A stretch of DNA of 16,490 bases from an uncultured Pseudomonadota bacterium. GTDB lineage: Bacteria > Oederibacteriota > Muellerivitia > Muellerivitales > Muellerivitaceae. Shown in pieces: positions 3,022-16,414 of this stretch; position 1 is the stretch's first letter; the number at the start of each line of letters is the position of its first letter. The stretch spans positions 1 to 16,490 of the forward strand of contig CAWJKT010000012.1 in NCBI GenBank assembly GCA_963843375.1. The letters are read 5' to 3'. A model generated the notes under the pieces. It saw only the letters and a program-made list of their open reading frames with translations, did not search any database and had not been told where the DNA came from. Both the position numbers and the translations under genes were made by a program.

Positions 3022-3678
3022 ATGAATTTTTATTTCACGATTTATCAAATGATCGAAACTTCCGGACGTTTGGAGGGCGATGTGAAGGTTTTGGCGACTC
3101 ACGCGCTTAGTACCAGCCCACGAGATGGACAAGCCAACCGGGCCCTTTTAGAACAGTGTGGTGACAGACTTCAGGAAGTCAATGTACTTCTAAATACCAA
3201 ATCCCATATCAGCAGGGTCCAACTTCGCAGGACGGCCATCCTATTCCAGATGATGGAAACCGCTCACCGGCGGGTCCTTCACCTAGCGGGGGCTGAGGTG
3301 CCGGACGACGAAACCTCCGTGAACGACATCTGGGGGCTTTTGTTCCAAGCCAAAAAAGATTACCGGGATCTTCGGACTGGTTTAGGCGAAAGGATGGGTA
3401 CTCCGCTTTACCTTGAACTGCCCGAAGAGGAGACGAATGGGGCTTTCAGGGAAATTCTCCTAAAGGAATCGGTTTTTCTGGAAGAAATGCTGAAGTTGGC
3501 TGAAAAGGCCATCGAAGTTTTTGGCGAGGAAAGGGAACTGGCCGACCAGTTGATATTGGTGCGAAAAAATTTGCTGGAGGCGAGAAAAAATGTGAAGCGG
3601 CTTCTTATAAAAAATTGCATTGAAAAGGAACCGGCCCTCCTGGCCCCAAGAGGGATCTCGCCACTGGATAGGAAATAA
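3022..3678 (+). CDS. Hypothetical all-helical cytoplasmic protein
   Basis: 218-aa ORF with GGGAGG SD and amphipathic E/K/L-rich helices. Its stop abuts the HPr ATG (TAAATG). Confidence 0.75.
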   Translation: MNFYFTIYQMIETSGRLEGDVKVLATHALSTSPRDGQANRALLEQCGDRLQEVNVLLNTKSHISRVQLRRTAILFQMMETAHRRVLHLAGAEVPDDETSVNDIWGLLFQAKKDYRDLRTGLGERMGTPLYLELPEEETNGAFREILLKESVFLEEMLKLAEKAIEVFGEERELADQLILVRKNLLEARKNVKRLLIKNCIEKEPALLAPRGISPLDRK

Positions 3679-3945
3679 ATGGTCATCGGCGAAAAAATCA
3701 TTGTTCCTGCCGCCTTGGGCCTTCATTTGAGATCAGCTGCCAAACTGGTCCTTTTGATGAGCCGGTATCAATGCGAGGTAACCGTCCGGAATGATCATCG
3801 AAGCGCAAACGCCAAGAGCATCATCGGTTTGATCTCGCTTGGGGCGGCCGCGGGAATGGAATTGTTTTTCAACTTCCAAGGCGACGACGCCGAAGAGGCT
3901 TCTCTTGTGGTCCGGGAGTTTTTTCAAAAGAGTTCCGACGAATAG
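3679..3945 (+). CDS. ptsH: HPr family phosphocarrier protein
   Basis: GLHLRSAA (His15 motif), NAKSIIGLISLG (Ser46 motif) and GDDAEEA. 88 aa. Confidence 0.9.
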   Translation: MVIGEKIIVPAALGLHLRSAAKLVLLMSRYQCEVTVRNDHRSANAKSIIGLISLGAAAGMELFFNFQGDDAEEASLVVREFFQKSSDE

Positions 3946-3978: not shown

Positions 3979-4236
3979 ATGAGGCCTTTCGGAAGTCAAA
4001 AAGAATTGGAACTTCGCCGTCTTCGGGCGATAAGCATGGCACTGAAGGGAATTAAGATGATCGCGATTGCCCGCGATTTGGGAGTGGACCAAAGAAGTGT
4101 TCGGCGGTGGAAAGCAGCCTACCGGAAGGAAGGGGTGAGGGGTTTGGAGGCCAAACCCGCTGCTTGTGGGCCTATGAAATGGCGAGGGAAGAAAATACCA
4201 GGAGGACTTCCCGCACGGAAAGGAGAAAATATATGA
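3979..4236 (+). CDS. Helix-turn-helix protein resembling the N-terminus of IS630-family transposases (no DDE domain)
   Basis: MRPFGSQKELELRRLRA...IARDLGVDQRSVRRWKAAYRKEGVRGLEAKP fits the IS630 N-terminal HTH pattern. GGAGGTG SD. Ends by ATGA overlap with the next gene. Confidence 0.7.
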   Translation: MRPFGSQKELELRRLRAISMALKGIKMIAIARDLGVDQRSVRRWKAAYRKEGVRGLEAKPAACGPMKWRGKKIPGGLPARKGENI

Positions 4237-5252: not shown

Positions 5253-6623
5253 ATGGGGAACCAAGACAGTCGACAGCTCGACCAGCCGGTATTCGCCCAG
5301 CCTGAACCAACCGAAGACCCGACGACTTTTCGGGTGAAGCATGCGTCCGACGCGGCGGCTTACAAAACCATCGATCAATTGAACGCCCAACACAAAATCA
5401 ATCCCACGCCCTTTCCCGCGCCGCGAACCACCAATGAAAGCCCCGACGAACCCATCCTCACTTTGGCGGACGTGCTGGGCGGCAACAGCTTGATGATCAA
5501 CAAGATCACCGCCCAAGACCAAATCGTGTTCCATGCTACGGGCGATTGCGGCAGTACGGTGGGACCCAAGACCGAAAGCGAGGTCGCGGACAAGATGGTG
5601 GCGGATTTCCAGGAAACTGACCCCGCTCAGGTCCCGCAGTTTAATTTTCTCTTAGGGGACGTCGTCTACAGCTTCGGGGAAGCCCAGTATTATTATGACC
5701 AATTTTACGAACCCTACCGGGAATATCCGGCCCCCATTCTTGCGGCGGCGGGGAACCATGACGGCATGGTGGCCCCCCAAACGGGCGTGGAAAGCCTTGC
5801 CGCCTTCTTGCGGAATTTTTGTTCGGAAAATTTCGTCATTACACCCGAAGCAGGAGGCCTTTCCCGCACCGCTCAAATCCAGCCCGGAGTCTTCTTTACA
5901 TTTGACGCCCCCTTCGTGCGCATCCTGGCGATCTACAGCAACACCCTGGAGGACCCCGGGGTCATTGCCGATGGAGGACCCTATAGCGGCTTAGGAACCT
6001 CTCAATTGGATTTTCTGACCGCCGCCCTCAGCCGAGCGAAAAGCGAAAAGTACCAGGGAGCGTTGTTGATCGCTTCCCACCATCCCTCCTATACCATCGC
6101 CAAACACGGATGGAGCACCCTCATGACATCGCAAATCGACGCCATCTGTAACAAGGTTGGGCTATGGCCCCACGCTTTCCTAGCGGGCCATGCTCATAAT
6201 TATCAGCGATTTACCCGTACCCGTTCGAACAACACCGAAATTCCCTACATCGTCTGTGGAAATGGTGGACATGGGCTTCAACGCTTGTCCAAGGTAGGAA
6301 CTCCTCTTCGCACCCCACAAGTTATACAGAACGCTTCGGGCTCCAATGACCAAGTGGTTTTCGAGAATTATGACGACGGCGATTACGGCTATTTACGGGT
6401 CATCGTGACAGAGAGCCAATTGCGCATTGAGTATCACCCGGCAAGTGACGGAGAAGCCGCGAAGACCCCGGATGATTCTGTAACGGTTGATCTCCAAAAG
6501 CGGATCCTCACCCAATACACCGCTCCGGATCTCGGCCGACCACAGGTCGCCCAAGCAATCCGGGCCTTCCGGAACCAGACCAAACCCTCAAGGTCGGTGG
6601 GTAAGAGGAGAAAAAGGAAATAA
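5253..6623 (+). CDS. Metallophosphoesterase (calcineurin-like, purple acid phosphatase-type motifs)
   Basis: AGGAGG SD. Motifs GDCG, GDVVY, GNHD, SHHP and GHAH in canonical order. No obvious signal peptide. Basic tail KRRKRK. Confidence 0.92.
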   Translation: MGNQDSRQLDQPVFAQPEPTEDPTTFRVKHASDAAAYKTIDQLNAQHKINPTPFPAPRTTNESPDEPILTLADVLGGNSLMINKITAQDQIVFHATGDCGSTVGPKTESEVADKMVADFQETDPAQVPQFNFLLGDVVYSFGEAQYYYDQFYEPYREYPAPILAAAGNHDGMVAPQTGVESLAAFLRNFCSENFVITPEAGGLSRTAQIQPGVFFTFDAPFVRILAIYSNTLEDPGVIADGGPYSGLGTSQLDFLTAALSRAKSEKYQGALLIASHHPSYTIAKHGWSTLMTSQIDAICNKVGLWPHAFLAGHAHNYQRFTRTRSNNTEIPYIVCGNGGHGLQRLSKVGTPLRTPQVIQNASGSNDQVVFENYDDGDYGYLRVIVTESQLRIEYHPASDGEAAKTPDDSVTVDLQKRILTQYTAPDLGRPQVAQAIRAFRNQTKPSRSVGKRRKRK

Positions 6624-7058
6624 CAAAAACACTAACTTTACCTGTGCCGGCCCCGTAGATTAAATGGCTTTGGTTCCAGGCGGACTGGCTTTTTAGAGAG
6701 GGGAGCGTCAATATGGCCCGTTTCAATCTTTTCCTCCGCATTATCCAAGCCCGGCGGACGCCCCTTCGTCAACCCATACAGGCTGGTTCATGTGGTTTGG
6801 GATCTTTCTGGTTTTATCCGAGAATTTGGCCCCTTCGACAAAAGGCCTGACAATCCAGCCCCTCCGGACCCTGGTTTCCGTGGTGGCAAAGCTCTTGCCA
6901 GCCCGCAATGAGCTTTTCGAACCCCTTTAAGAGTCTCCAGCCAATACCCAGTTTTTGGCAAATGGTCTAAAATAATGCCTGGATTCCAGCCTGAAATTGG
7001 GAGTTATCCATTTAGGCCCTTTTGAGAGTAATAAAAGCCCTTTCCTCAATTAAAAAAT

Positions 7059-7088
7059 GGAATAAAGTGCTTATTCAAAAGGCTAATC
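7059..7088 (+). promoter_or_regulatory. Candidate ECF-type autoregulatory promoter (GGAATAAA-14-GGCTAATC)
   Basis: GGAAT -35-like box right before the sigma RBS. The same TGGAATAAA recurs at 11262-11270. Confidence 0.35.
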
Positions 7089-7101: not shown

Positions 7102-7665
7102 TTGGAAGACCGGGAGTTGGTTGAAAAAATACTCCAGGGGGACGAGGGGGCCAAGGCTCAATTCTATACCCAATACCGGGAACGCCTTTACAAGGATTGC
7201 GTTTTTCTGTTGGGCTACCGAGACCCGGAAGCTGAAGATTTGGTGCAGGAAGCCTTCCTGATCGCCTTTAAAAAACTTCCTTCTTTCGAATTTCGCTCTT
7301 CGCTGGGCACCTGGCTGACGCAGATTGGAATTTACCTTTGCTACAACCGCTACCGCAACCGGGCCCGGATGGTGTTGAAGGAAGAAGAAAACCTGGAAGG
7401 CCTTTTGAGAACGAAAGCCATGCAAGGAGAAATCCAAAAATCCCGGGAGGAGGACAAACAACTCAAGCTGCGGCTAATTGACCGGGGTCTGGAGAAGATA
7501 GGGCCCGAATGCCGGGAGATTGTAGTTTTAAGGGATAAAGAGGAAAAAACTTATATTGAAATCGGGAAGGCGCTGAAAATCCCCCTGGGTACGGTGATGT
7601 CCAGGCTGTCGCGTTGCAAAAAGGCACTGAAAGTTTTGATCGAACAAATGCTTCGAGAGGGATGA
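7102..7665 (+). CDS. ECF (sigma-70 group 4) RNA polymerase sigma factor
   Basis: AGGAGG SD and TTG start. Region 2 AEDLVQEAF...FEFRSSLGTWL and region 4 TYIEIGKALKIPLGTVMSRLSR. 187 aa. Confidence 0.95.
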   Translation: MEDRELVEKILQGDEGAKAQFYTQYRERLYKDCVFLLGYRDPEAEDLVQEAFLIAFKKLPSFEFRSSLGTWLTQIGIYLCYNRYRNRARMVLKEEENLEGLLRTKAMQGEIQKSREEDKQLKLRLIDRGLEKIGPECREIVVLRDKEEKTYIEIGKALKIPLGTVMSRLSRCKKALKVLIEQMLREG

Positions 7666-7666
7666 G

Positions 7667-8350
7667 ATGGCGGATTTGATAACTGAATTTTTCGAACGGG
7701 AGTTGACTGAAACGGAAGCCGACTCCCTGGGCGACCTCTTGAGGGAATCGCCTGACGAAACCCTTCGCTTCGAAGGCCTGCTGGAAGGCCATTACCTTGC
7801 GACGGGGTTGCCGTCCCCCCAATTGCCCGCCTCGCTCCTCAAGCTTCCCCCTTCCCCAGGGGGATGGGGTGGCGCGGGTGGTTTGAAGCTTTTGTTCCTT
7901 TTGGGCGCGGCCGGGTTGGGTTTGCTTGCATGGAAATTCCGCCCCATAACTTCTTTCTTTCAACCTGCCGCTATTCCGGCCTCCGCGACTCTTTCCCAGT
8001 CACCGGTCTTTTCAACGGCTCCTAAGCCGGTCAATACCTTACCCCAGCCAGCCAATGCGGCTAAATCTGAACCGGTTCAACCGCAGGAAGCGGGCCCTGT
8101 AGCGGAGGGGGAAGAATTAAGCGTGGAAGTTGGAACCCAAGAAAAAACCCTTATAACCGTGCGGGTACTCAATCACGAGGGCAAGGAAATCTGCGATATT
8201 TATACCGGTTTCGTCCAACCAGGCCAATGGTCCTTCCGGTGGAATGGCAACCTTGCCGATGGCATGCCGGCTCCGGCGGGGGCCTATCAAATTGACGTTC
8301 AGGCGGGCGCCCTGCATCAAAGCAAAGACATCCAAATCAAGCCGAATTGA
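7667..8350 (+). CDS. Putative membrane anti-sigma factor with C-terminal FlgD-Ig / T9SS-CTD-like domain
   Basis: Starts 1 nt after the sigma stop. Short acidic helical N-domain, single TM (LLFLLGAAGLGLLAW, about 7889-7933), Pro-rich linker, then VRVLNHEGKEI...PGQWSFRWNG...GMPAPAGAYQIDV. Confidence 0.8.
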   Translation: MADLITEFFERELTETEADSLGDLLRESPDETLRFEGLLEGHYLATGLPSPQLPASLLKLPPSPGGWGGAGGLKLLFLLGAAGLGLLAWKFRPITSFFQPAAIPASATLSQSPVFSTAPKPVNTLPQPANAAKSEPVQPQEAGPVAEGEELSVEVGTQEKTLITVRVLNHEGKEICDIYTGFVQPGQWSFRWNGNLADGMPAPAGAYQIDVQAGALHQSKDIQIKPN

Positions 8351-8417
8351 TTTTGGGTTTGGTGACATTCCGTTGGGAAGCCATAATAAGAATATTCCCC
8401 GGGAGGTCTTTGGCGCG

Positions 8418-9851
8418 ATGGGTTCAAAACGTTTCAAACTAATCTTCGTCCTTTTACTCCTAACGGCACCTTCCATTCTCCGGGCACAGGCCAATGGTGA
8501 TGGCCTCAAGGGCACCTATTTCATTAACACCAACCTCACCAGCCCGGCCGTGACCGTTGTAGATCCCTTAGTCAGCTATCGATGGTTCGGCTGTCCTCCT
8601 CAGCCGGGAATGTCGGGGACCTCCTTTTCGGTTCAATGGCTGGGTCAGGTGGATTCTTCCTATAGTGAACCCTATACCTTCACGGTTGACGTTAACGGCG
8701 GCGTGAGCGTGATCGTCAACGGCCAAGTCCTTATCAGCCAATGGACCGATTTTCCCCCGCCCGTCCGCGGCTTTTCGGGGGTGATCAGCCTGACGGCTGG
8801 CCTCAAGGTTCCCATTGAAGTGGACTATTTTACCAACGGCGCCAATCCCACTTCCGACCTGATTCAACTGGCTTGGCAAAGCCCTTCCCAAGGATATGAA
8901 TATGTTCCAAGGGAGTATCTCTTTTCGGGGGCGGCGCTGAACCCCACCCCCACGCCCCAAACGACCATGGCCTGCCAGTCGAGCGTTAGCGTGGACGGGG
9001 TCCTGAGCGAATGGGCCTGGACCACGCCTACGGGCTGGAACACCGTTTCCCGGCCTGTGCTGGGCAACGTCTACGGGACCACGGCGGTCTTCAAAACACT
9101 GTGGGACACATCCAACCTCTATCTCGGTGTGACAGTCACTGACAGCCAGCTCACCAACAACGGTGTCTCGGCCGTATGGGAAAACTCGGCGGTGGAGCTT
9201 TACCTGGACACCACCGACTCCAAGAGCATCACGGTCGTCAGCACCGATTTCCAATACTTCTTCGGGTGGAACGACACGGTGGCCGTCGAGGCCCTAGGAA
9301 GGACCGCTGGAGTGAGCCTGCGCACAACGACCATTTCCACCGGCTATGTTGTGGAAGCCTCCATCCCCTGGACAACCTTGGGCTTAGGGAGTCCGAGCCC
9401 CGGGATGGTGTTGGGCTTGGACGTAGGCGTGGACGTGAATCATAACGGGGGCAATTGCCGGGATGGTCAGTTAATGTGGAACGGCGGGTCGGACGATTAC
9501 GCGAACGCCAGCGATTACGGCCAACTGACCCTGACAAGCGCTTGTCCCACCCCCGTCGCAACACCGCCCGCCCCGACGAGCCTGCCTTATGTTTATCCCA
9601 ATCCCACCAGCGGTCCGGTGGTGACTTTCGTTTACACCATGGCCCAGGCGGGAACGGTTTCCATCAAGGTTTGGAACGCCTGGGGAAACCTGGCCGCCAC
9701 AATCAATGATTCCAAATCACCCGGATTGGCTTCCAGTACTTTGGACATCAGCTCTTTCGCTCCCGGTCATTATTTTTATCGAATTGAGCTCGACTATGAT
9801 TCGGGACAAAAAGACGAGTTTAAAACTCAGGTCCTGGCTATCAAGAAATGA
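8418..9851 (+). CDS. Secreted non-catalytic PA14 + CBM9-like (DOMON sugar-binding) protein with T9SS type-A-like CTD
   Basis: GGAGG SD, ATG 8418 and signal peptide. PA14 (GLKGTYF...FSVQWLG...YTF...W...SPSQ). CBM9-like (VDGVLSEW, WDTSNLYLGVTVTD, VELYLD, GYVVEASIPW). CTD (YPNP...IKVWNAWGNL...PGHYFYRI...LAIKK). Confidence 0.88.
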   Translation: MGSKRFKLIFVLLLLTAPSILRAQANGDGLKGTYFINTNLTSPAVTVVDPLVSYRWFGCPPQPGMSGTSFSVQWLGQVDSSYSEPYTFTVDVNGGVSVIVNGQVLISQWTDFPPPVRGFSGVISLTAGLKVPIEVDYFTNGANPTSDLIQLAWQSPSQGYEYVPREYLFSGAALNPTPTPQTTMACQSSVSVDGVLSEWAWTTPTGWNTVSRPVLGNVYGTTAVFKTLWDTSNLYLGVTVTDSQLTNNGVSAVWENSAVELYLDTTDSKSITVVSTDFQYFFGWNDTVAVEALGRTAGVSLRTTTISTGYVVEASIPWTTLGLGSPSPGMVLGLDVGVDVNHNGGNCRDGQLMWNGGSDDYANASDYGQLTLTSACPTPVATPPAPTSLPYVYPNPTSGPVVTFVYTMAQAGTVSIKVWNAWGNLAATINDSKSPGLASSTLDISSFAPGHYFYRIELDYDSGQKDEFKTQVLAIKK

Positions 9852-11191
9852 AAAGACGAGAATTTTTACCACGAGGTTTTTCAAAATCCATTCAACCTTT
9901 CAAGTCGAAAGCCTTTCTGGGGGCTCTGGGTTCCTTCTTGGTTCAGCTTTTGTTTCCGGCTCATTCTTTTTCCCAAAATGTTTCTTCGACCGCTGGCCTC
10001 GTCACACCCTTGAGCGCATTGGGGGCCTCCGCGCGAGCGGACGCGATGGGGTCGGCCTTCGCGGGCATTGCTGACGATTCCGCGGCGCTCTTCTTCAACA
10101 GCGCGGGGCTTTCGGGCCTGGGGGACGCCCAGATCAGTCTCAACCACAACAGCTACCTGGCTGGTTCTTTCGAGGAAACCCTGCTGGTGGGGCTTCCGGC
10201 GGGGGATTTGGGCGGTTTCGCGGGTGCAGTTCAAAGTGTCTTTTGGGGAAGCCTTGATGAAAGGGACGCTTCGGGCGTCGACTTGGGAACATTCCAGGAC
10301 AACGACGTGGCCTTGAGTTTCGGGTGGGGCAAGGAATGGGCAAAGGGATTTTCCGCTGGCGTGGCCCTCTACGGGACCCAGCAAAAAATCGTGGAGTCGC
10401 TATACGACAGCCTCTCGGGACAAGCCGGTTTGCTATGGAAGGCTTCCCCCGGACTGCGGTTTGGTCTGGCCTATGCGGGGTTCGGAACCCCGGTAGCTGG
10501 TCAAGCTTTGGCGACGGACTTGAAAGGAGGAACTTCTTATTTCTTTCATCTCAGCGCGGACAAAAGTCTCTTGTTGGCCTTTACAGGCGATGCCGAACCT
10601 AATAGTGTCAGTCGCCTCCAGGGGGGGATTGAGGCGGGATACCGAAAGAATATATTCCTGAGGATGGGTTACCAGCTTCCGTTATCCAACAACCAGGTTA
10701 CCGGTTTTGATAATTTTACAGCCGGCGTGGGCATCCATTTTGATTCCATTACCCTGGATTACGCCTATGTTCCTTATGGTGATTTGGGAACTTCTAACCG
10801 AATCAGCCTGGCTTATGATTTTTCAAATCCTACCCCCGTTCCGGTCAAGCCGGTGACGGTTGTTGTGACGCCGGTTCCGATTCCCATTCCAACTGTCACA
10901 CCCGTCCCCGCAAAACCATCAGTAGCGGTCCATTTCGAGGTTCCCCTCAGCGTCGCCACGCCCGAAACCAACCCGGAGATTTTGGCCCAACTGCAACAAT
11001 ACCAAAAGGCTACAGAAGCCAATCCCCAAGATCCCGCCGCCTGGCATCGTTTGGGGCTGGCTTATTGGAAAACGGGACAGAAGGATTTGGCGGTCCAATG
11101 CCTCGAACAAGCCTTGAGGCTCGATCCTTCGGATACCCAACTGAAGGCCTGGATTGATCTGTACAATTCCAGCCAGCCTGCGAACCGTTAA
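9848..11191 (+). CDS. PorV/PorQ-like (FadL-superfamily) outer-membrane beta-barrel with Pro-rich linker and C-terminal TPR
   Basis: ATGA overlap with the upstream gene. ARADAMGSAFAGIADDSAALFFNSAGL N-terminal motif. Amphipathic strands ending DYAYVPYGDLG..NRISLAYDF. TPR PQDPAAWHRLGLAYWKTGQKDLAVQCLEQALRLDP. Confidence 0.85.
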   Translation: MKRREFLPRGFSKSIQPFKSKAFLGALGSFLVQLLFPAHSFSQNVSSTAGLVTPLSALGASARADAMGSAFAGIADDSAALFFNSAGLSGLGDAQISLNHNSYLAGSFEETLLVGLPAGDLGGFAGAVQSVFWGSLDERDASGVDLGTFQDNDVALSFGWGKEWAKGFSAGVALYGTQQKIVESLYDSLSGQAGLLWKASPGLRFGLAYAGFGTPVAGQALATDLKGGTSYFFHLSADKSLLLAFTGDAEPNSVSRLQGGIEAGYRKNIFLRMGYQLPLSNNQVTGFDNFTAGVGIHFDSITLDYAYVPYGDLGTSNRISLAYDFSNPTPVPVKPVTVVVTPVPIPIPTVTPVPAKPSVAVHFEVPLSVATPETNPEILAQLQQYQKATEANPQDPAAWHRLGLAYWKTGQKDLAVQCLEQALRLDPSDTQLKAWIDLYNSSQPANR

Positions 11192-11378
11192 AAAGTTTTA
11201 ACGTTTCTAATTATGGTTTTTTCAATGAGTTTTGCTTCGTTGACAATTTTTATTTTTTTTTTGGAATAAATCTCCCCATCCAAACACCTATCCGTTGTAC
11301 AGGCTTGTCCACTTGCCAATTGGACGGGTCCTGTCGGGGACATTAAAAGCCCTTTTTAAAAATTGATGGCGGAGATCC

Positions 11379-11567
11379 ATGCAAGGTTCTAAATCCCGTT
11401 TAAAACGTTACATCTTTTTCCTTTTTGCCTTCCTGATGTTTTCCCCGAGTTTCTCCTGGGCCCAAACCTCCATCTATCAAAATCTCAACCTCCCAGGGTT
11501 TCGTCCCGATTTCGATATTGGTGTGTTGGGCAATGATTTCTATTTTCCTGTCGCCGGGAAAGTTTAG
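11379..11567 (+). CDS. Small signal-peptide-bearing ORF (62 aa); secreted peptide or gene remnant
   Basis: GGAG SD. KSRLKRYIFFLFAFLMFSPSFSWA/Q is a classic SPase I signal, leaving a mature part of about 34 aa. Confidence 0.5.
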   Translation: MQGSKSRLKRYIFFLFAFLMFSPSFSWAQTSIYQNLNLPGFRPDFDIGVLGNDFYFPVAGKV

Positions 11568-11809: not shown

Positions 11810-14800
11810 ATGACCCTGAAAAAATTGAAGGCTTTAACCCTGATCCTCGGTTTTGGTTGCTTCGTCTCATCCGCTTGGGGCCAAACGGTCACCGTTAATC
11901 CCGGTACCACCTATCAAACGATCTCGGGTTTCGGTGCTTCCAGTCAATGGGACAATTCATTCTCGTCCTCTCTCGCTAACAATTTTTGGGCTGACGATTC
12001 CAATCAGCCCCCCGCCAGCCAGGTCAACGGCAATGTCGGGCTTTCCATTCTCCGACTCGGGATTGACGACTCCGGTAACGCCAATTGGGGCTCGCAATGC
12101 GCATTCGCCACCCAGGCCCTGGGGATCAATTCTAACATCCGGGTCTTCGGCTCCGAGTGGAGCCCGCCGGCGAAATGGAAGAACAACAACAGCGTCGATG
12201 GCAACAACACCGGCAACGATAACGGCAATCCGGGCTCCAACACCAACCAACTCAACCCCTCGAACTATGCGGCCTATGCCGCCTACCAGACGAGCTTTGT
12301 CACGGCTTGCAAGAATACCTATGGGTTCACGCCTTACGCCATCTCTGTCCAGAATGAGCCGGATTACGATCCCAGTTACGATGCCTGTCTTTGGTCACCT
12401 TCGGCATTCGACACCTATATCGGGACCTATCTGGGCCCGGACCTTGAGGCCGCTGGCTTCGGCACCTCGATCATCATGATGCCCGAGTCCTTCGCGGACA
12501 ATTTGAACCTTTCCGCCACCACCATGGGCGACCCGACCGCGGCGGCTTTCGTGAGGTGCATCGGCATGCATTTGTACGGTGGCGGCCCTAACACGGTTCC
12601 GACCAGCTACTCGACTACGGCCGGCCACACCGTTGAGAGCTGGGAAACTGAAATCTCGGAAAAAACAAGCGACAACAACATCGACAGCGGGATCTACTAC
12701 GCCGATTTGCTGCACAACTGCATTGTGGATCATAACTTCAACGCCTTTTGCTACTGGTGGCTGGTTAACATTAACTCTGACGACGAGGGGCTTTGTACAA
12801 GCGCAGGCACTCCTACTCCTCGCCTCTACTGTATTGGTAATTTCAGCAAATTCATTCGCCCGGGTTTCGTGCGCATCGGCTGTACCGAATCGCCCTCCGC
12901 CGGGGTTTCGGTATCGGCTTATTACGGCTCATCCACGGGTAAGGTCGTGGTTGTGGCCATTAACAGCAATACTTCCAGCTACAGCCTACCTGTCAGTTAT
13001 ACCGGCTTTACCGCCACCACGGTTTATCCCTGGCTCACGGACTCCAGTAGCAATCTAGTCCAGCAGACGGCAGTGAATGTCAGCAACGGAAGCTTTACCT
13101 ATACCCTGCCGGGCCAAAGCGTTGTGAGTTTCGTTACCACCATGAACAGTGGATCACCCGTGCCAACCGTTACACCTACCCTGAGTCCCACACCGGTCGT
13201 TGCCTCCACCTGGAGGGTCAATGCGGGCGGGCCCACCTATGTCAGCGCCTCCTCGGGGTTCACCTGGCTGGCGGATGAGAATTACAACGGCGGATCCACC
13301 ATCGCCGAGGGAACCACCATTGCCGGTACCAACGACCCCACCCTTTATGATACCCAGCGTTACGGATCGAGCTTTAGCTATTCCTTCAACGTGCCTGCCG
13401 GCAGCTACCAGATCTCCTTGTTGTTTGCCGAGACCTATTCGGGTGATTTCGCCAAGGGTGACCGTGTTTTCAACGTAGCCATTGACGGGACCACGGTGCT
13501 GTCGAACTTTGATGTTTACGGCCAAGTGGGCGGAAACACTGCGGATGTACAGGTGTTCAACAACATTTCGCCCTCAAGCGGCGTCATCACCATTTCATTT
13601 ACCGGTACCTCCAGCACGGATACCAACGCGATGGTGGACGCCATCCAAATCATTCCCATGCCTGCCGTAACGGCGACGGCCACCAGTACGGTGACGCGGA
13701 CCAATACTTTGACGGCCACCAGCACGGCTTCTTCCACCCCCACTTCCACCGCGACGGCCAGCCCGACCCGTACTTCAACCGTCACCCCATCTAACACGCC
13801 GATACCCCCGACTTTAACAACCACTTCGACGGCCACCTCTACACCGACCAAGACCAATAGTCCTGTGCCGCCTACGGCCACGAATACAACCACGGCGACT
13901 TGGACCAGCACTCCGGTTCCCCCGACACCCACCAATACACCCTTGCCGCCGACAGCAACGAATACTAATAATCCGGTGCCTCCGACGGCGACCAATACTC
14001 CGGTTCCGCCCACCCCGACCAGCACGAGTACGCCGGTGCCTCCTACCCCCACCAGCACCAACAGCCCGGTGCCACCAACACTGACCAATACTCCGCTACT
14101 TCCGACCGCAACCAATACTCCGGCTCCACCCACCGCGACCGGCACGAGTACGCCAGTGCCTCCCACGGCCACTAGCACCAACAGTCCCGTACCGCCAACG
14201 GTAACCAATACCTTGACGGCTACGCTATCAAGTACTTCTACCAACACGCGGGTGCCGCCAACGATGACGCCAACACCGGTTCCTCCGACCGCAACGAGGA
14301 CGAACACGCCCATTCCGCCAACCTCTACTCCTACGCCGGTTCCACCGACGGAAACCTTTACGCTGACGCCTCTTGCGCCTACTTCCACTCCTACGGAAGT
14401 CATCTCAAGTTCGAACTTCACAGTTCAACTGCTGAGCGGCGTGACCAGCGACACGACCAACAGTCCCCATCCCTTTATCCAAGTGGTGAATACGGGAACG
14501 GGGCCCCTGGATCTGAACAACGTGGAAGTGCGCTACTGGTTCAATTGCGATTGCACGACCCAATCCCTGCAGGTTTGGGTGGACTGGGCGGGATTACTTC
14601 CCGCCGGAACCTCTGTTACGGGAGACATCGCAGCGACAATCGTTCCCACCAGTTTAGGCGGCCAGACGGATTACGTGAGCTACAAGTTCAACGGGAACTT
14701 GGTGCTGCAACCCGGGCAAATGATCCAAATCCAAAGCCGCTTCAATAAGAGCGACTGGAGCAACATGAACCAGGCCAACGATTGGAGTTTTGCGCCCTAT

Positions 14801-15250
14801 ACGAGTTATACCAATGCGCCTCAGGTGACGGGATATCTGGGTGGAACGCTGGTTTGGGGCGAACAGCCGGTGGCAGCCCCGGCAGCGCTTTCGGTCGCCA
14901 ACGTCTTATCCTTCCCGAATCCCTCCACCGGGACTGGAGCGACCCTCTCCTTTAGCTTGAACGGTTCGAGTTCGGGCGCGAGCGGGTCGGTTTTGAGTGA
15001 AAGCGACCCGGCGTTGGTGGACCCCAACGCCCAGATCAACCTGAGCATCTATAGCCTGGCTTTTCGATTGATCTGGACCCAGACATTGACCGGGGGAGGA
15101 TACGGGACCACGGGGAACCATGATTACTACTGGAACGAACGGGACTTTCAGGGCGCCGGTTTAGCCAACGGTGTTTACGTTTTGAAGGTTACCGTGGAGT
15201 CCAAAGGCCAGAAAAGCTCGGCCATAGGGAAGATTTTGATCTTGAAGTAA
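11810..15250 (+). CDS. Modular glycoside hydrolase: signal, GH30 (xylanase-like), malectin/CBM57, Pro/Thr linker, CBM3, T9SS type-A-like CTD
   Basis: GGAGGT SD and ATG 11810. GH30: QTISGFGAS, WSPP, VQNEPD (acid/base Glu 12356-12358), WETE (nucleophile Glu 12650-12652), FSKFIRPG. Malectin about 13211-13657 (RVNAGG, LFAE, RVFNV). CBM3 about 14413-14869 (NTG..LDL..VRYWF, DWSNMNQANDWSF, LVWGEQP). CTD FPNP...NGVY...GKILILK. Confidence 0.93.
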   Translation: MTLKKLKALTLILGFGCFVSSAWGQTVTVNPGTTYQTISGFGASSQWDNSFSSSLANNFWADDSNQPPASQVNGNVGLSILRLGIDDSGNANWGSQCAFATQALGINSNIRVFGSEWSPPAKWKNNNSVDGNNTGNDNGNPGSNTNQLNPSNYAAYAAYQTSFVTACKNTYGFTPYAISVQNEPDYDPSYDACLWSPSAFDTYIGTYLGPDLEAAGFGTSIIMMPESFADNLNLSATTMGDPTAAAFVRCIGMHLYGGGPNTVPTSYSTTAGHTVESWETEISEKTSDNNIDSGIYYADLLHNCIVDHNFNAFCYWWLVNINSDDEGLCTSAGTPTPRLYCIGNFSKFIRPGFVRIGCTESPSAGVSVSAYYGSSTGKVVVVAINSNTSSYSLPVSYTGFTATTVYPWLTDSSSNLVQQTAVNVSNGSFTYTLPGQSVVSFVTTMNSGSPVPTVTPTLSPTPVVASTWRVNAGGPTYVSASSGFTWLADENYNGGSTIAEGTTIAGTNDPTLYDTQRYGSSFSYSFNVPAGSYQISLLFAETYSGDFAKGDRVFNVAIDGTTVLSNFDVYGQVGGNTADVQVFNNISPSSGVITISFTGTSSTDTNAMVDAIQIIPMPAVTATATSTVTRTNTLTATSTASSTPTSTATASPTRTSTVTPSNTPIPPTLTTTSTATSTPTKTNSPVPPTATNTTTATWTSTPVPPTPTNTPLPPTATNTNNPVPPTATNTPVPPTPTSTSTPVPPTPTSTNSPVPPTLTNTPLLPTATNTPAPPTATGTSTPVPPTATSTNSPVPPTVTNTLTATLSSTSTNTRVPPTMTPTPVPPTATRTNTPIPPTSTPTPVPPTETFTLTPLAPTSTPTEVISSSNFTVQLLSGVTSDTTNSPHPFIQVVNTGTGPLDLNNVEVRYWFNCDCTTQSLQVWVDWAGLLPAGTSVTGDIAATIVPTSLGGQTDYVSYKFNGNLVLQPGQMIQIQSRFNKSDWSNMNQANDWSFAPYTSYTNAPQVTGYLGGTLVWGEQPVAAPAALSVANVLSFPNPSTGTGATLSFSLNGSSSGASGSVLSESDPALVDPNAQINLSIYSLAFRLIWTQTLTGGGYGTTGNHDYYWNERDFQGAGLANGVYVLKVTVESKGQKSSAIGKILILK
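13661..14400 (+). repeat. Pro/Thr-rich linker with degenerate PVPPTxTxT(xT) units
   Basis: About 245 aa containing repeated 9-11 aa units (PVPPTATNT, PVPPTPTSTST) with varied synonymous codons. Confidence 0.9.
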
Positions 15251-15772: not shown

Positions 15773-16414
15773 ATGGCTTTAAGACTAGGGGATATAGCCC
15801 CGGATTTTACGCAGGATTCCAGCGAAGGTAAAATTCATTTTTACGATTGGGCCGGTAAGTCCTGGGTGGTGCTGTTTTCCCACCCGGCGGATTTCACGCC
15901 CGTTTGCACCACCGAATTGGGGGCCACGGCAAAATTGAAACCCGAATTCGAGAAAAGGGGCGTGAAGGTGGTTGCTCTTTCCGTGGATACCGTGGAAAAC
16001 CATAAGGGTTGGATTCCGGATATCAACGAGACCCAGGGCACCAAGGTCAATTTCCCAATTTTGGCGGATCACGACCATGAAGTGTCGCTTTTGTACGATT
16101 TGATCCATCCGAACTCGCTGGCCAACGCCACGGTCCGGTCGGTTTTTATCATCGACGCCGATAAGAAAATCCGGGCCACTATCACCTATCCGGCCAGCAC
16201 GGGCCGCAATTTCAACGAGATTTTGCGGGTCATCGATTCCTTGCAGTTGACTGACAACTACAAGGTGGCTACCCCGGTGAATTGGAAGGACGGGGAAGAC
16301 GTGGTTATCGTTCCAGCCTTAAAGGACGAGAACGAGTTGCGCGAGCGGTTCCCGAAGGGATTCAAGGTGGTTCGGCCTTACCTGCGCCTAACCGCCCAGC
16401 CGAACAAGAAGTAA
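15773..16414 (+). CDS. lsfA: 1-Cys peroxiredoxin (Prx6 subfamily, LsfA-like)
   Basis: AGGAGG SD. FSHPADFTPVCTTELG active-site motif, YPASTGRNFNEILRVIDSLQL and single Cys. The whole sequence closely resembles Pseudomonas LsfA as recalled. Confidence 0.93.
   Translation: MALRLGDIAPDFTQDSSEGKIHFYDWAGKSWVVLFSHPADFTPVCTTELGATAKLKPEFEKRGVKVVALSVDTVENHKGWIPDINETQGTKVNFPILADHDHEVSLLYDLIHPNSLANATVRSVFIIDADKKIRATITYPASTGRNFNEILRVIDSLQLTDNYKVATPVNWKDGEDVVIVPALKDENELRERFPKGFKVVRPYLRLTAQPNKK

Follow-up and report, generated by a model that had tools for sequence, protein, structure and literature searches.

We report a four-gene cassette in a 16,490-nt stretch of DNA (positions 1 to 16,490 of contig CAWJKT010000012.1, assembly GCA_963843375.1; hereafter the window) from an uncultured soil lineage, many close relatives of which are labelled candidate division FCPU426. 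It comprises genes for an extracytoplasmic function (ECF) sigma factor, a putative anti-sigma, a secreted cargo protein and a PorV-family outer-membrane barrel. The cassette is real, conserved and undescribed in the literature that we searched; subscription papers and supplements lay outside that search, and ECF classification tables might hold the group. [quoted passage not shown]

The four genes form a conserved, multi-copy cassette

The close packing described in the initial annotation was reproduced exactly by the open reading frame (ORF) coordinates (Table 1). One nucleotide separates the sigma gene, which opens with a TTG start codon, from the anti-sigma gene, 67 nt lie between the anti-sigma gene and the ATG of the cargo gene at 8418, and the cargo and barrel genes share an ATGA overlap. 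The first product is an ECF sigma, as had been proposed: Pfam and NCBIfam scans found sigma70 regions 2 and 4 only, with TIGR02937 over its cutoff. Full-length relatives of this sigma share 39-87% identity with it, and the next relatives 33% or less.

The anti-sigma alignment held no conserved stretch usable as a search query, and the sigma alignment was used for the collection search, which returned 79 genome loci (59 of the close sigma subfamily and 20 distant ECF loci). With detection models made from 20 related loci, we observed the anti-sigma N-domain at 56 of the 59 close loci and a barrel at 49 (within 6 kb), and at 46/59 a complete set, in which cassette-type cargo, barrel and anti-sigma all fall inside 6 kb, versus 0/20 of the distant ECF loci, where no cassette part was present at all. 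The four-gene synteny on which the earlier proposal depended is therefore conserved. The genes are arranged in one of three ways (sigma-anti-cargo-barrel, sigma-anti-barrel-cargo and cargo-barrel-sigma-anti), every mapped locus encodes anti-sigma and barrel separately, and the 80 metagenome loci, most of them short, keep the same gene order wherever they are long enough. The window's genome alone holds four modules, two of them damaged by probable indel errors. Within a 99-genome sample of the phylum, anti-sigma matches were present in 29 of the family's 30 other genomes, and outside the family full-length anti-sigma copies stood beside barrels in one genome of another family. The protein family is diverse: its best 150 matches contain some 140 full-length clusters when grouped at 50% identity. 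Among the matches listed, the ESM Atlas relatives, all below 0.9, are proteins of 260-390 aa from Bacteroidota and Ignavibacteriota that end in T9SS-type tails, and we treat them as leads only. Together, these findings confirm that the cassette is a conserved multi-copy unit and not a chance co-location.

The apparent sigma/anti-sigma fusion on contig C6 of G000 and the broken anti-sigma on C11 are probably indel errors, because several genes in the assembly are frameshifted and in a genome of the same genus the C6 pair is not fused; the frameshifts or in-frame fusion (C11:291706-292362, C6:201444-203402, C22:1-760 and C15:110180-116168) suggest errors of this kind. A divergent cassette subfamily (G000:C6:199860-204984, L123, L124, L127 and L129) lies, in several genomes, directly after flagellar hook-like genes (FlgE-like by eye) and beside an ABC transporter; L123 holds two tandem sigma/anti-sigma pairs and L127 two cargos.

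The anti-sigma carries an incomplete CTD-like domain

The AF2 (AlphaFold2) model of the 227-aa anti-sigma shows three N-terminal helices, a transmembrane helix, a disordered linker (bounds in Table 1) and a six-strand sandwich. A downstream neighbour with a helical cytoplasmic domain and one transmembrane helix accompanies the sigma at 56/59 close loci, and residues 1-65 align with 8Z6G_A, from the cytoplasmic complex of AlgU and MucA (Z 6.6, rmsd 5.0, 65 aligned residues), a match that is weak for helices. None of the 136 members of the anti-sigma family matches a Pfam anti-sigma family, an RsgI domain or FecR. Given this arrangement and fold, the first two products almost certainly constitute a pair of sigma and anti-sigma, putative as the assignment is, in which the anti-sigma would sequester the sigma.

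The sandwich is where the initial annotation was only partly upheld. It had described a FlgD/CTD-like fold (CTD, the C-terminal domain of T9SS cargos), and the fold itself stood: FlgD_ig is the sole Pfam match (residues 149-213, E 2.6e-9), all 136 members carry it, and the structure resembles the CTDs of PorU, PorZ and mirolase (Z 7-8.7). The domain is not, however, a complete type-A CTD, as the immunoglobulin-like (Ig) domain begins at the second strand of the FlgD/CTD fold and the YPNP-type first-strand motif is found in 0/136 anti-sigma Igs compared with 36/38 cargo CTDs. That annotation had further held that the anti-sigma presents a CTD, which as a secretion tag is contradicted by the missing motif; the Ig is predicted instead to bind a strand and the TPR of the PorV tail. 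We therefore regard the alternative closest to the earlier wording as very unlikely, namely that the Ig, as a genuine CTD or a decoy, passes into the T9SS or binds at the barrel's CTD site. Its likeness to known CTDs and the three anti-sigma ORFs that score with the general CTD model built here are what such a decoy would explain, but no member matches Por_Secre_tail, profile comparison with the cargo CTD gives a weak match (29% probability, 37 columns), and the CTD site of PorV lies on extracellular loops in the available text of PMC10994853, whereas the anti-sigma is anchored in the inner membrane.

A cassette-specific barrel tail is predicted to bind the anti-sigma

The fourth gene was correctly called a PorV-like barrel with a TPR: NF033709 (PorV_fam) scores 97 bits against a cutoff of 90, and the AF2 monomer shows 14 strands, unfolded residues 330-373 and then the TPR. 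Its top fold matches are 8GL6_F and 6H3I_F, chain F of two T9SS translocon structures, which we take to be PorV. As the number of strands is even, the tail is placed in the periplasm by topology. A hydrophobic strand lies just before the TPR in 36/37 complete cassettes, compared with 6.5% of shuffled linkers, and the linkers around it vary from 25 to 129 residues. When the best 150 of 183 tail rows were considered, with duplicates and large CTD proteins dropped from the anti-sigma list, strand-bearing tails lay within 5 kb of an anti-sigma in 60/68 cases versus 0/82 for generic TPR matches, and 60 of 80 anti-sigmas had a strand-bearing tail within 5 kb. The four best matches of the tail model in the window's genome are the four cassette barrels, other PorV paralogues having other tails or none. 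Likewise, with a model of the cassette CTD only three ORF tails in the genome reach 92 bits or more (the next scores 32), each within a cassette. The description of the barrel as dedicated to its cargo thus fits this genome, where both the cassette-specific CTD tails and the strand-TPR tails are exclusive to cassettes.

This exclusivity also bears on whether the cargo and barrel are signalling parts at all, or merely co-transcribed targets of an ordinary sigma/anti-sigma pair that senses something else. At least seven further CTD-cargo genes in the genome are directly followed by their own PorV paralogue with no sigma, several with FN3 or TPR tails; such pairs represent a general private-carrier strategy of the genome, of which the cassette cargo and barrel are a subtype, and 10/59 sigma/anti-sigma loci have no barrel within 6 kb. 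Yet the linkage persists when the genes are reordered, even where the barrel precedes the sigma promoter, only cassette barrels have the strand-TPR tail, and several of the ten barrel-less loci are short contigs or have the barrel farther off (L097 = L121). We consider an absent signalling link highly improbable.

The idea that the tail complements the Ig by a strand was framed before the complex prediction was run. The model of the PorV tail with the anti-sigma Ig scored 0.64, against 0.29 for the best control, with runs sharing at least 89% of contacts and a partner pLDDT of at least 78; the pass mark applied is reached by 116/157 solved and 2/215 mismatched pairs and is only roughly valid for the present alignments. 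The barrel/TPR-to-CTD-like interface that the earlier proposal called for is thus predicted. In the model, tail residues S358-S368, with F363 central, pack on anti-sigma L151-E159 and V211, and TPR residues 386-424 contact T161-T164 and T180-F182. The best 60 of 240 chains from a PDB search with the tail alignment are generic TPRs, and since none of them spans the conserved strand, memory of a like complex is not evident in the model; the full-length search was dominated by TPRs. Going by this model, binding of the PorV tail to the anti-sigma Ig is quite likely. The two linkers together measure at least 74 residues across cassettes and 93 here, which suffices to cross the periplasm by usual dimensions. 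The separate idea of a linker "ruler", which calls for a negative correlation between the lengths of the two linkers, was rejected, as the correlation is positive (rho 0.58).

Cargo type tracks the regulated output

The third product was proposed to consist of carbohydrate-type modules and a CTD, and the scans agree: PA14, CBM9_1 and Por_Secre_tail were found, with no catalytic domain. By motif the CTD is a complete type-A domain (TIGR04183 and PF18962 over cutoff), accompanied by a signal peptide. The best PDB matches of the cargo are the clostridial RsgI PA14 dyads 6QE7 (E 2e-36) and 6QDI (E 2e-31), with 1I82 for CBM9, in keeping with the RsgI-like logic that the initial annotation had suggested. 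The CBL2 loop of the cargo PA14, TNGAN, looks nearer to the xylan type (NNTGN) than to the pectin type (QHVRA), a loose resemblance; the xylan signature of this loop is given in the available portion of PMC6852018.

We scanned 38 cargos across the family and found 8 PA14-CBM9, 4 lectin/DUF11, 2 PL1-malectin, 1 other lectin, 16 beta-propellers, 2 IgGFc-binding, 2 CTD-only and 3 without assignment. For this cassette, the RsgI-like cargo and xylan-type regulon fit the polysaccharide sensing earlier proposed, but the family as a whole is not restricted to it, as carbohydrate-type domains occur in 15/38 cargos and propellers in 16/38. The two PL1-malectin cargos (L058:7224-9155 and L039:7683-9971) have a pectate-lyase fold with N or S at the position where three solved lyases have R, presumably the catalytic base; because this conserved Arg is replaced, they read as sensors rather than enzymes and are candidate pseudo-enzyme pectin sensors.

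The promoters provide a second view of the output. GGAATA occurs within 130 nt 5' of all 48 sigma genes examined, compared with 6% of random windows, and GGAATAAA as -35 with an ACAC[CT]AATC-type -10 lies upstream of GH30 in 10 orthologous loci; the lectin/DUF11 and PL1 paralogue cassettes use a different -10 element. A weight matrix trained on 23 of 24 sites, all from other genomes, identified 7 sites in this genome at 29.5-37 bits, with the next site at 18.4 and a maximum of 19.3 over four shuffles. They stand upstream of the sigma itself, of four GH30s including that of the window, of a GH62 and of a duplicated GH30 start where a contig ends; on C22 and C6 of G000 the promoter and GH30 start are near-identical. 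A scan for sigma-70 promoters and terminators gave a result at or below chance.

The CTD-bearing GH30-CBM3 enzyme noted downstream is present, with a malectin domain between GH30 and CBM3. XynC is the best match of every GH30 in the regulon, in each case below its cutoff, and for the window enzyme "xylanase" is likely rather than assigned, because NF052681 (E 6e-64) scores 217 bits against a cutoff of 650. Arabinoxylan or xylan is the likely substrate of these GH30s as judged from their sequences, and the set recovered by the promoter model is very probably a xylan-type regulon. The C11 paralogue lies among PL4, GH53 and GH28 genes, and the top three sites of a pectin-type promoter model precede the C11 sigma, PL4 and GH28, with only the C11 sigma exceeding the shuffled maximum of 21.3, making this model suggestive for the C11 cluster.

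Of 41 candidate first-downstream genes, 35 were scanned. PA14-CBM9 cassettes are followed by GH30, GH62 or GH44 in 12/14 cases (the other two have no match), lectin/DUF11 cassettes by PL4 in 4/4 and the PL1-malectin cassette by GH28 in 1/1, while the ten Kelch/NHL propeller cassettes precede proteases (3) or NHL proteins (7) and a carbohydrate-active enzyme (CAZyme) in 0/10. Cargo type therefore tracks output, PA14-CBM9 going with xylanases, lectin or pectate-lyase-like cargos with pectinases, and propellers with proteases or propellers. At L061, L071 and L079, Kelch or NHL propeller cargos are followed by S53 or S8 proteases, and such cassettes are possible protein-sensing versions.

The host encodes T9SS-type parts

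The host is a diderm that encodes BamA. Its genome holds 12 PorV_fam genes over cutoff and 82 ORFs with a CTD-like tail by our own iterated model, and SprA-like ORFs of about 2000 aa are present in 28/31 genomes of the family, including 17/17 near-complete ones. The SprA-like gene at G000:C15:110180-115440 (L138), which has 27 relatives, is frameshifted in the assembly. With the SprA-like gene present (below cutoff) and GldM and peptidase C25 not found, as detailed below, the host T9SS is likely reduced or divergent, and possibly motor-less or differently powered. The genome further encodes an RseP homologue. That no TonB receptor belongs to the system, as initially stated, agrees with the cassette maps, which contain none; the six matches to the TonB-dependent receptor family PF00593 lie on other contigs or far from the cassette. 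In the cassette maps, whose neighbours were not systematically scanned, we recognised neither kinase nor regulator, and a distant kinase is possible.

Proposed signalling path and points that weigh against it

In the signalling reading, the anti-sigma would hold the ECF sigma at the inner membrane while the PA14-CBM9 cargo leaves through the SprA-like translocon and remains, by its cassette-specific CTD, on the outer loops of its own PorV paralogue. Such display of the cargo on a private barrel is likely, judging from T9SS structures and the exclusive co-occurrence of the two. The PorV tail would give a beta-strand to the incomplete Ig, with the TPR packing against it, to create a non-covalent tether that spans both membranes. 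Xylan-type polysaccharide captured by the cargo would then alter the tether by tension, clustering or release and lead to proteolysis of the anti-sigma, for which the RseP homologue would be available; we rate a ligand on the cargo as the trigger reasonably probable. The freed sigma would transcribe its own operon together with the GH30 and GH62 genes, as the computed promoter motif predicts, and paralogous cassettes would exchange the sensing module and -10 element and so govern pectinases, proteases or other proteins of the surface.

Several observations weigh against this reading. The predicted strand pairing reads as parallel and therefore is no simple replacement of the native first strand, and conservation at the interface residues does not exceed that of the remaining ones (0.55 against 0.57, and 0.52 against 0.52). 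Covariation at the predicted contacts over 52 paired rows reached p 0.0002 against random pairs and p 0.04 against scrambled partners, the fair control; being weak by that control, and circular because the complex model saw most rows, it was set aside as support for the contact. The SprA-like matches all fall below the 200-bit family cutoff, and GldM (PF12081) and PorU-type peptidase C25 (PF01364) were not found in the 31 genomes, a search in which no positive control scored over cutoff. Other residues take the place of the RsgI PA14-A calcium motif (CBL1 Asp-Asp) in the cargo PA14, which may for that reason bind weakly. The counts across genomes are not independent, because the genomes are kin, and passage of a signal through the closed barrel of the model lacks an explanation.

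Two further observations each lend themselves to a different mechanism. The identity of the anti-sigma Ig follows that of the cargo CTD (rho 0.63) more than that of the PorV tail (0.33), as would be expected if the cargo CTD or sugar-loaded modules touched the anti-sigma in the periplasm before export, with the barrel removing or parking the cargo. CBM9 binds reducing ends and could thereby read oligosaccharides, which could be taken up by the six TonB-dependent receptors that the genome encodes elsewhere. A precedent for periplasmic contact is the PorA CTD, which binds PorY there according to the available part of PMC12152298. Periplasmic sensing nevertheless leaves the cassette-exclusive strand-TPR tail and the passed complex model without explanation, and the cargo has a complete CTD and a barrel of its own; we judge it improbable.

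The other observation is that some otherwise complete cassettes (L074, L088 and G000 C16) have a cargo that is a CTD alone, and therefore nothing to sense with; such CTD-only cargos, a signal peptide plus CTD of about 120-140 aa, are found at G000:C16:26473-29552, L074, L080 and L088. They would suit a monitor of export or occupancy, in which the tether is real and reports loading of the barrel by the CTD (secretion flux or cargo loss), the N-terminal module being mere cargo or handle. The regulon does consist of T9SS cargos, and the PorA CTD activates signalling in Porphyromonas gingivalis in the portion of PMC12152298 available. Against such a monitor, cargo type matches the class of enzyme regulated, the PL1-like cargos lack the conserved Arg, and paralogues use different -10 elements, where a flux monitor needs no substrate-matched copies. 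We hold it to be unlikely, and continue to prefer sensing of a ligand at the cell surface.

If the surface-signalling reading is right, PorV-family barrels gain a regulatory role that could account for the dozen or more paralogues per genome. Whether PorV barrels, beyond their part as secretion shuttles, can act as signal-transducing receptors, giving this lineage a programmable platform with any T9SS-exported module (lectin, dead enzyme or propeller) displayed on a private barrel, seems to us evenly balanced. The arrangement is possibly a two-piece, strand-complemented tether that dispenses with TonB receptor and kinase and is read mechanically on insoluble polymer. As far as is known, diderms sense outside polymers mainly after importing fragments or by TonB-dependent receptors; here a diderm would sense intact insoluble polysaccharide at its surface with the modular logic of one-membrane clostridia. 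With its promoter motif and its xylan and pectin versions, the cassette also yields a map of regulation in an uncultured soil lineage that can be tested and, should the tether work in a model host, a swappable surface-to-transcription biosensor.

Relation to known signalling systems

The logic of the cassette is known from RsgI, TonB signalling and Dma, which are separate kinds of system, and its hardware fits none of them. In TonB signalling, exemplified by FecIRA and the Bacteroides SusC-type systems, an outer-membrane receptor with a periplasmic extension touches an inner-membrane anti-sigma. The cassette likewise has an outer-membrane protein with an extension toward the periplasmic domain of the anti-sigma, but its receptor is a PorV barrel with a C-terminal strand-TPR tail instead of a transporter with an N-terminal STN domain, its anti-sigma has a FlgD-Ig and not FecR, and a separate displayed protein carries the ligand site.

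The comparisons that follow draw on the available portions of the cited papers. In cellulolytic clostridia, the biomass-sensing SigI/RsgI systems are paralogous pairs whose sensing modules can be exchanged and whose regulons, matched to the substrate (xylan versus pectin), are separated by promoter sequence (PMC6852018, PMC6056542). The cassette shares the modular sensors and substrate-matched regulons, and its PA14 is a sequence relative of the RsgI PA14. However, its sigma is ECF (TIGR02937, with the best 25 of 85 NCBIfam rows being ECF) and not SigI, its sensor is a separate secreted protein rather than part of the anti-sigma, which ends after the Ig, the RsgI domain is absent from the 136 anti-sigmas, and the host is a diderm with BamA. 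Dma, which controls vesiculation, is a single polypeptide with a sigma-binding domain, membrane helix, disordered periplasmic tether and 8-strand barrel (PMC10927553). In both systems a cytoplasmic domain, inner-membrane helix, long disordered tether and outer-membrane barrel form one path; in the cassette two non-covalently joined proteins would make up this path, with a PorV carrier as the barrel and the sensor supplied by the cargo.

PorA of P. gingivalis is a lectin-like CTD cargo that may stay on PorV and influences the ECF sigma SigP (PMC7712824), its CTD signalling in the periplasm to the kinase PorY within a two-component system that uses the general PorV and has T9SS genes as output (PMC12152298, PMC7712824). 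The cassette differs in having an anti-sigma, a private tailed barrel, no recognised kinase within the cassette and CAZyme output. Flavobacterium shuttle/cargo pairs join PorP/SprF with type-B CTDs (PMC12618676), as PorV is joined with type-A CTDs (PMC10994853), and resemble the cassette in that the cargo gene is linked to its own carrier barrel and the CTD subtype is matched to the barrel subtype; the texts of PMC12618676 and PMC10994853, as far as available, concern localisation only, with no signalling tail and no linked sigma/anti-sigma. The accessible part of PMC7031533, which treats FCPU426 and type IX secretion, contains neither PorV nor a sigma factor.

Other features of the window

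The features of the locus are collected in Table 1. The 62-aa ORF that separates the second promoter from the GH30 gene is probably the remnant of a secreted-enzyme gene; its distance from the promoter is that observed in relatives, and its N-terminus resembles that of the GH30 at G000:C11:415883.

Table 1. Features of the cassette and its predicted target genes, in window coordinates
Feature	Position	Strand	Basis and remarks
Predicted autoregulatory ECF promoter	7057..7088	+	GGAATAAA (-35), spacer, GGCTAAT (-10); 31.1 bits with the matrix from other genomes
ECF sigma factor, 187 aa	7102..7665	+	Lineage-specific subfamily; Pfam sigma70 r2/r4; TIGR02937 over cutoff
Putative anti-sigma, 227 aa	7667..8350	+	Three-helix cytoplasmic domain, transmembrane helix 72-90, Pro-rich linker 95-148, FlgD/CTD-like Ig 149-227
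Secreted sensor cargo, 477 aa	8418..9851	+	Signal peptide, PA14 28-164, CBM9 192-373, cassette-specific type-A-like CTD 392-477
PorV-family 14-strand outer-membrane barrel, 447 aa	9848..11191	+	C-terminal tail of Pro-rich linker, conserved strand and TPR; NF033709 over cutoff
Conserved donor-type strand in PorV tail (V359-P366 region, F363)	10922..10942	+	Predicted partner: anti-sigma strand L151-E159
Second predicted promoter for the same sigma	11261..11292	+	5' of the enzyme gene; 29.5 bits
62-aa ORF, signal-peptide-like start	11379..11567	+	Between second promoter and GH30 gene
Predicted target: GH30 (XynC-like), malectin, Thr/Pro linker, CBM3, ordinary CTD	11810..15250	+	Domain scans

By eye, Gln occupies the +1 position after predicted signal-peptide cleavage in the window cargo, barrel and GH30; a +1 Gln is a feature of Bacteroidota secreted proteins. 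Elsewhere in the window are a transposase-type HTH fragment (3979-4236), a purple-acid-phosphatase-like metallophosphoesterase (5253-6623) and a 1-Cys peroxiredoxin (15773-16414), which are not kept beside the cassette in mapped relatives. Stand-alone HPr-like genes occur at 2478-2747 and 3679-3945 of the window and at G000:C16:31993-32280, none of them near obvious PTS (phosphotransferase system) genes, and the two in the window flank a 218-aa ORF without Pfam match (3022-3678). Finally, a Gly/Ser-rich secreted protein without Pfam match, encoded at 254-1612, carries a Trp/Tyr/Gly-rich block.

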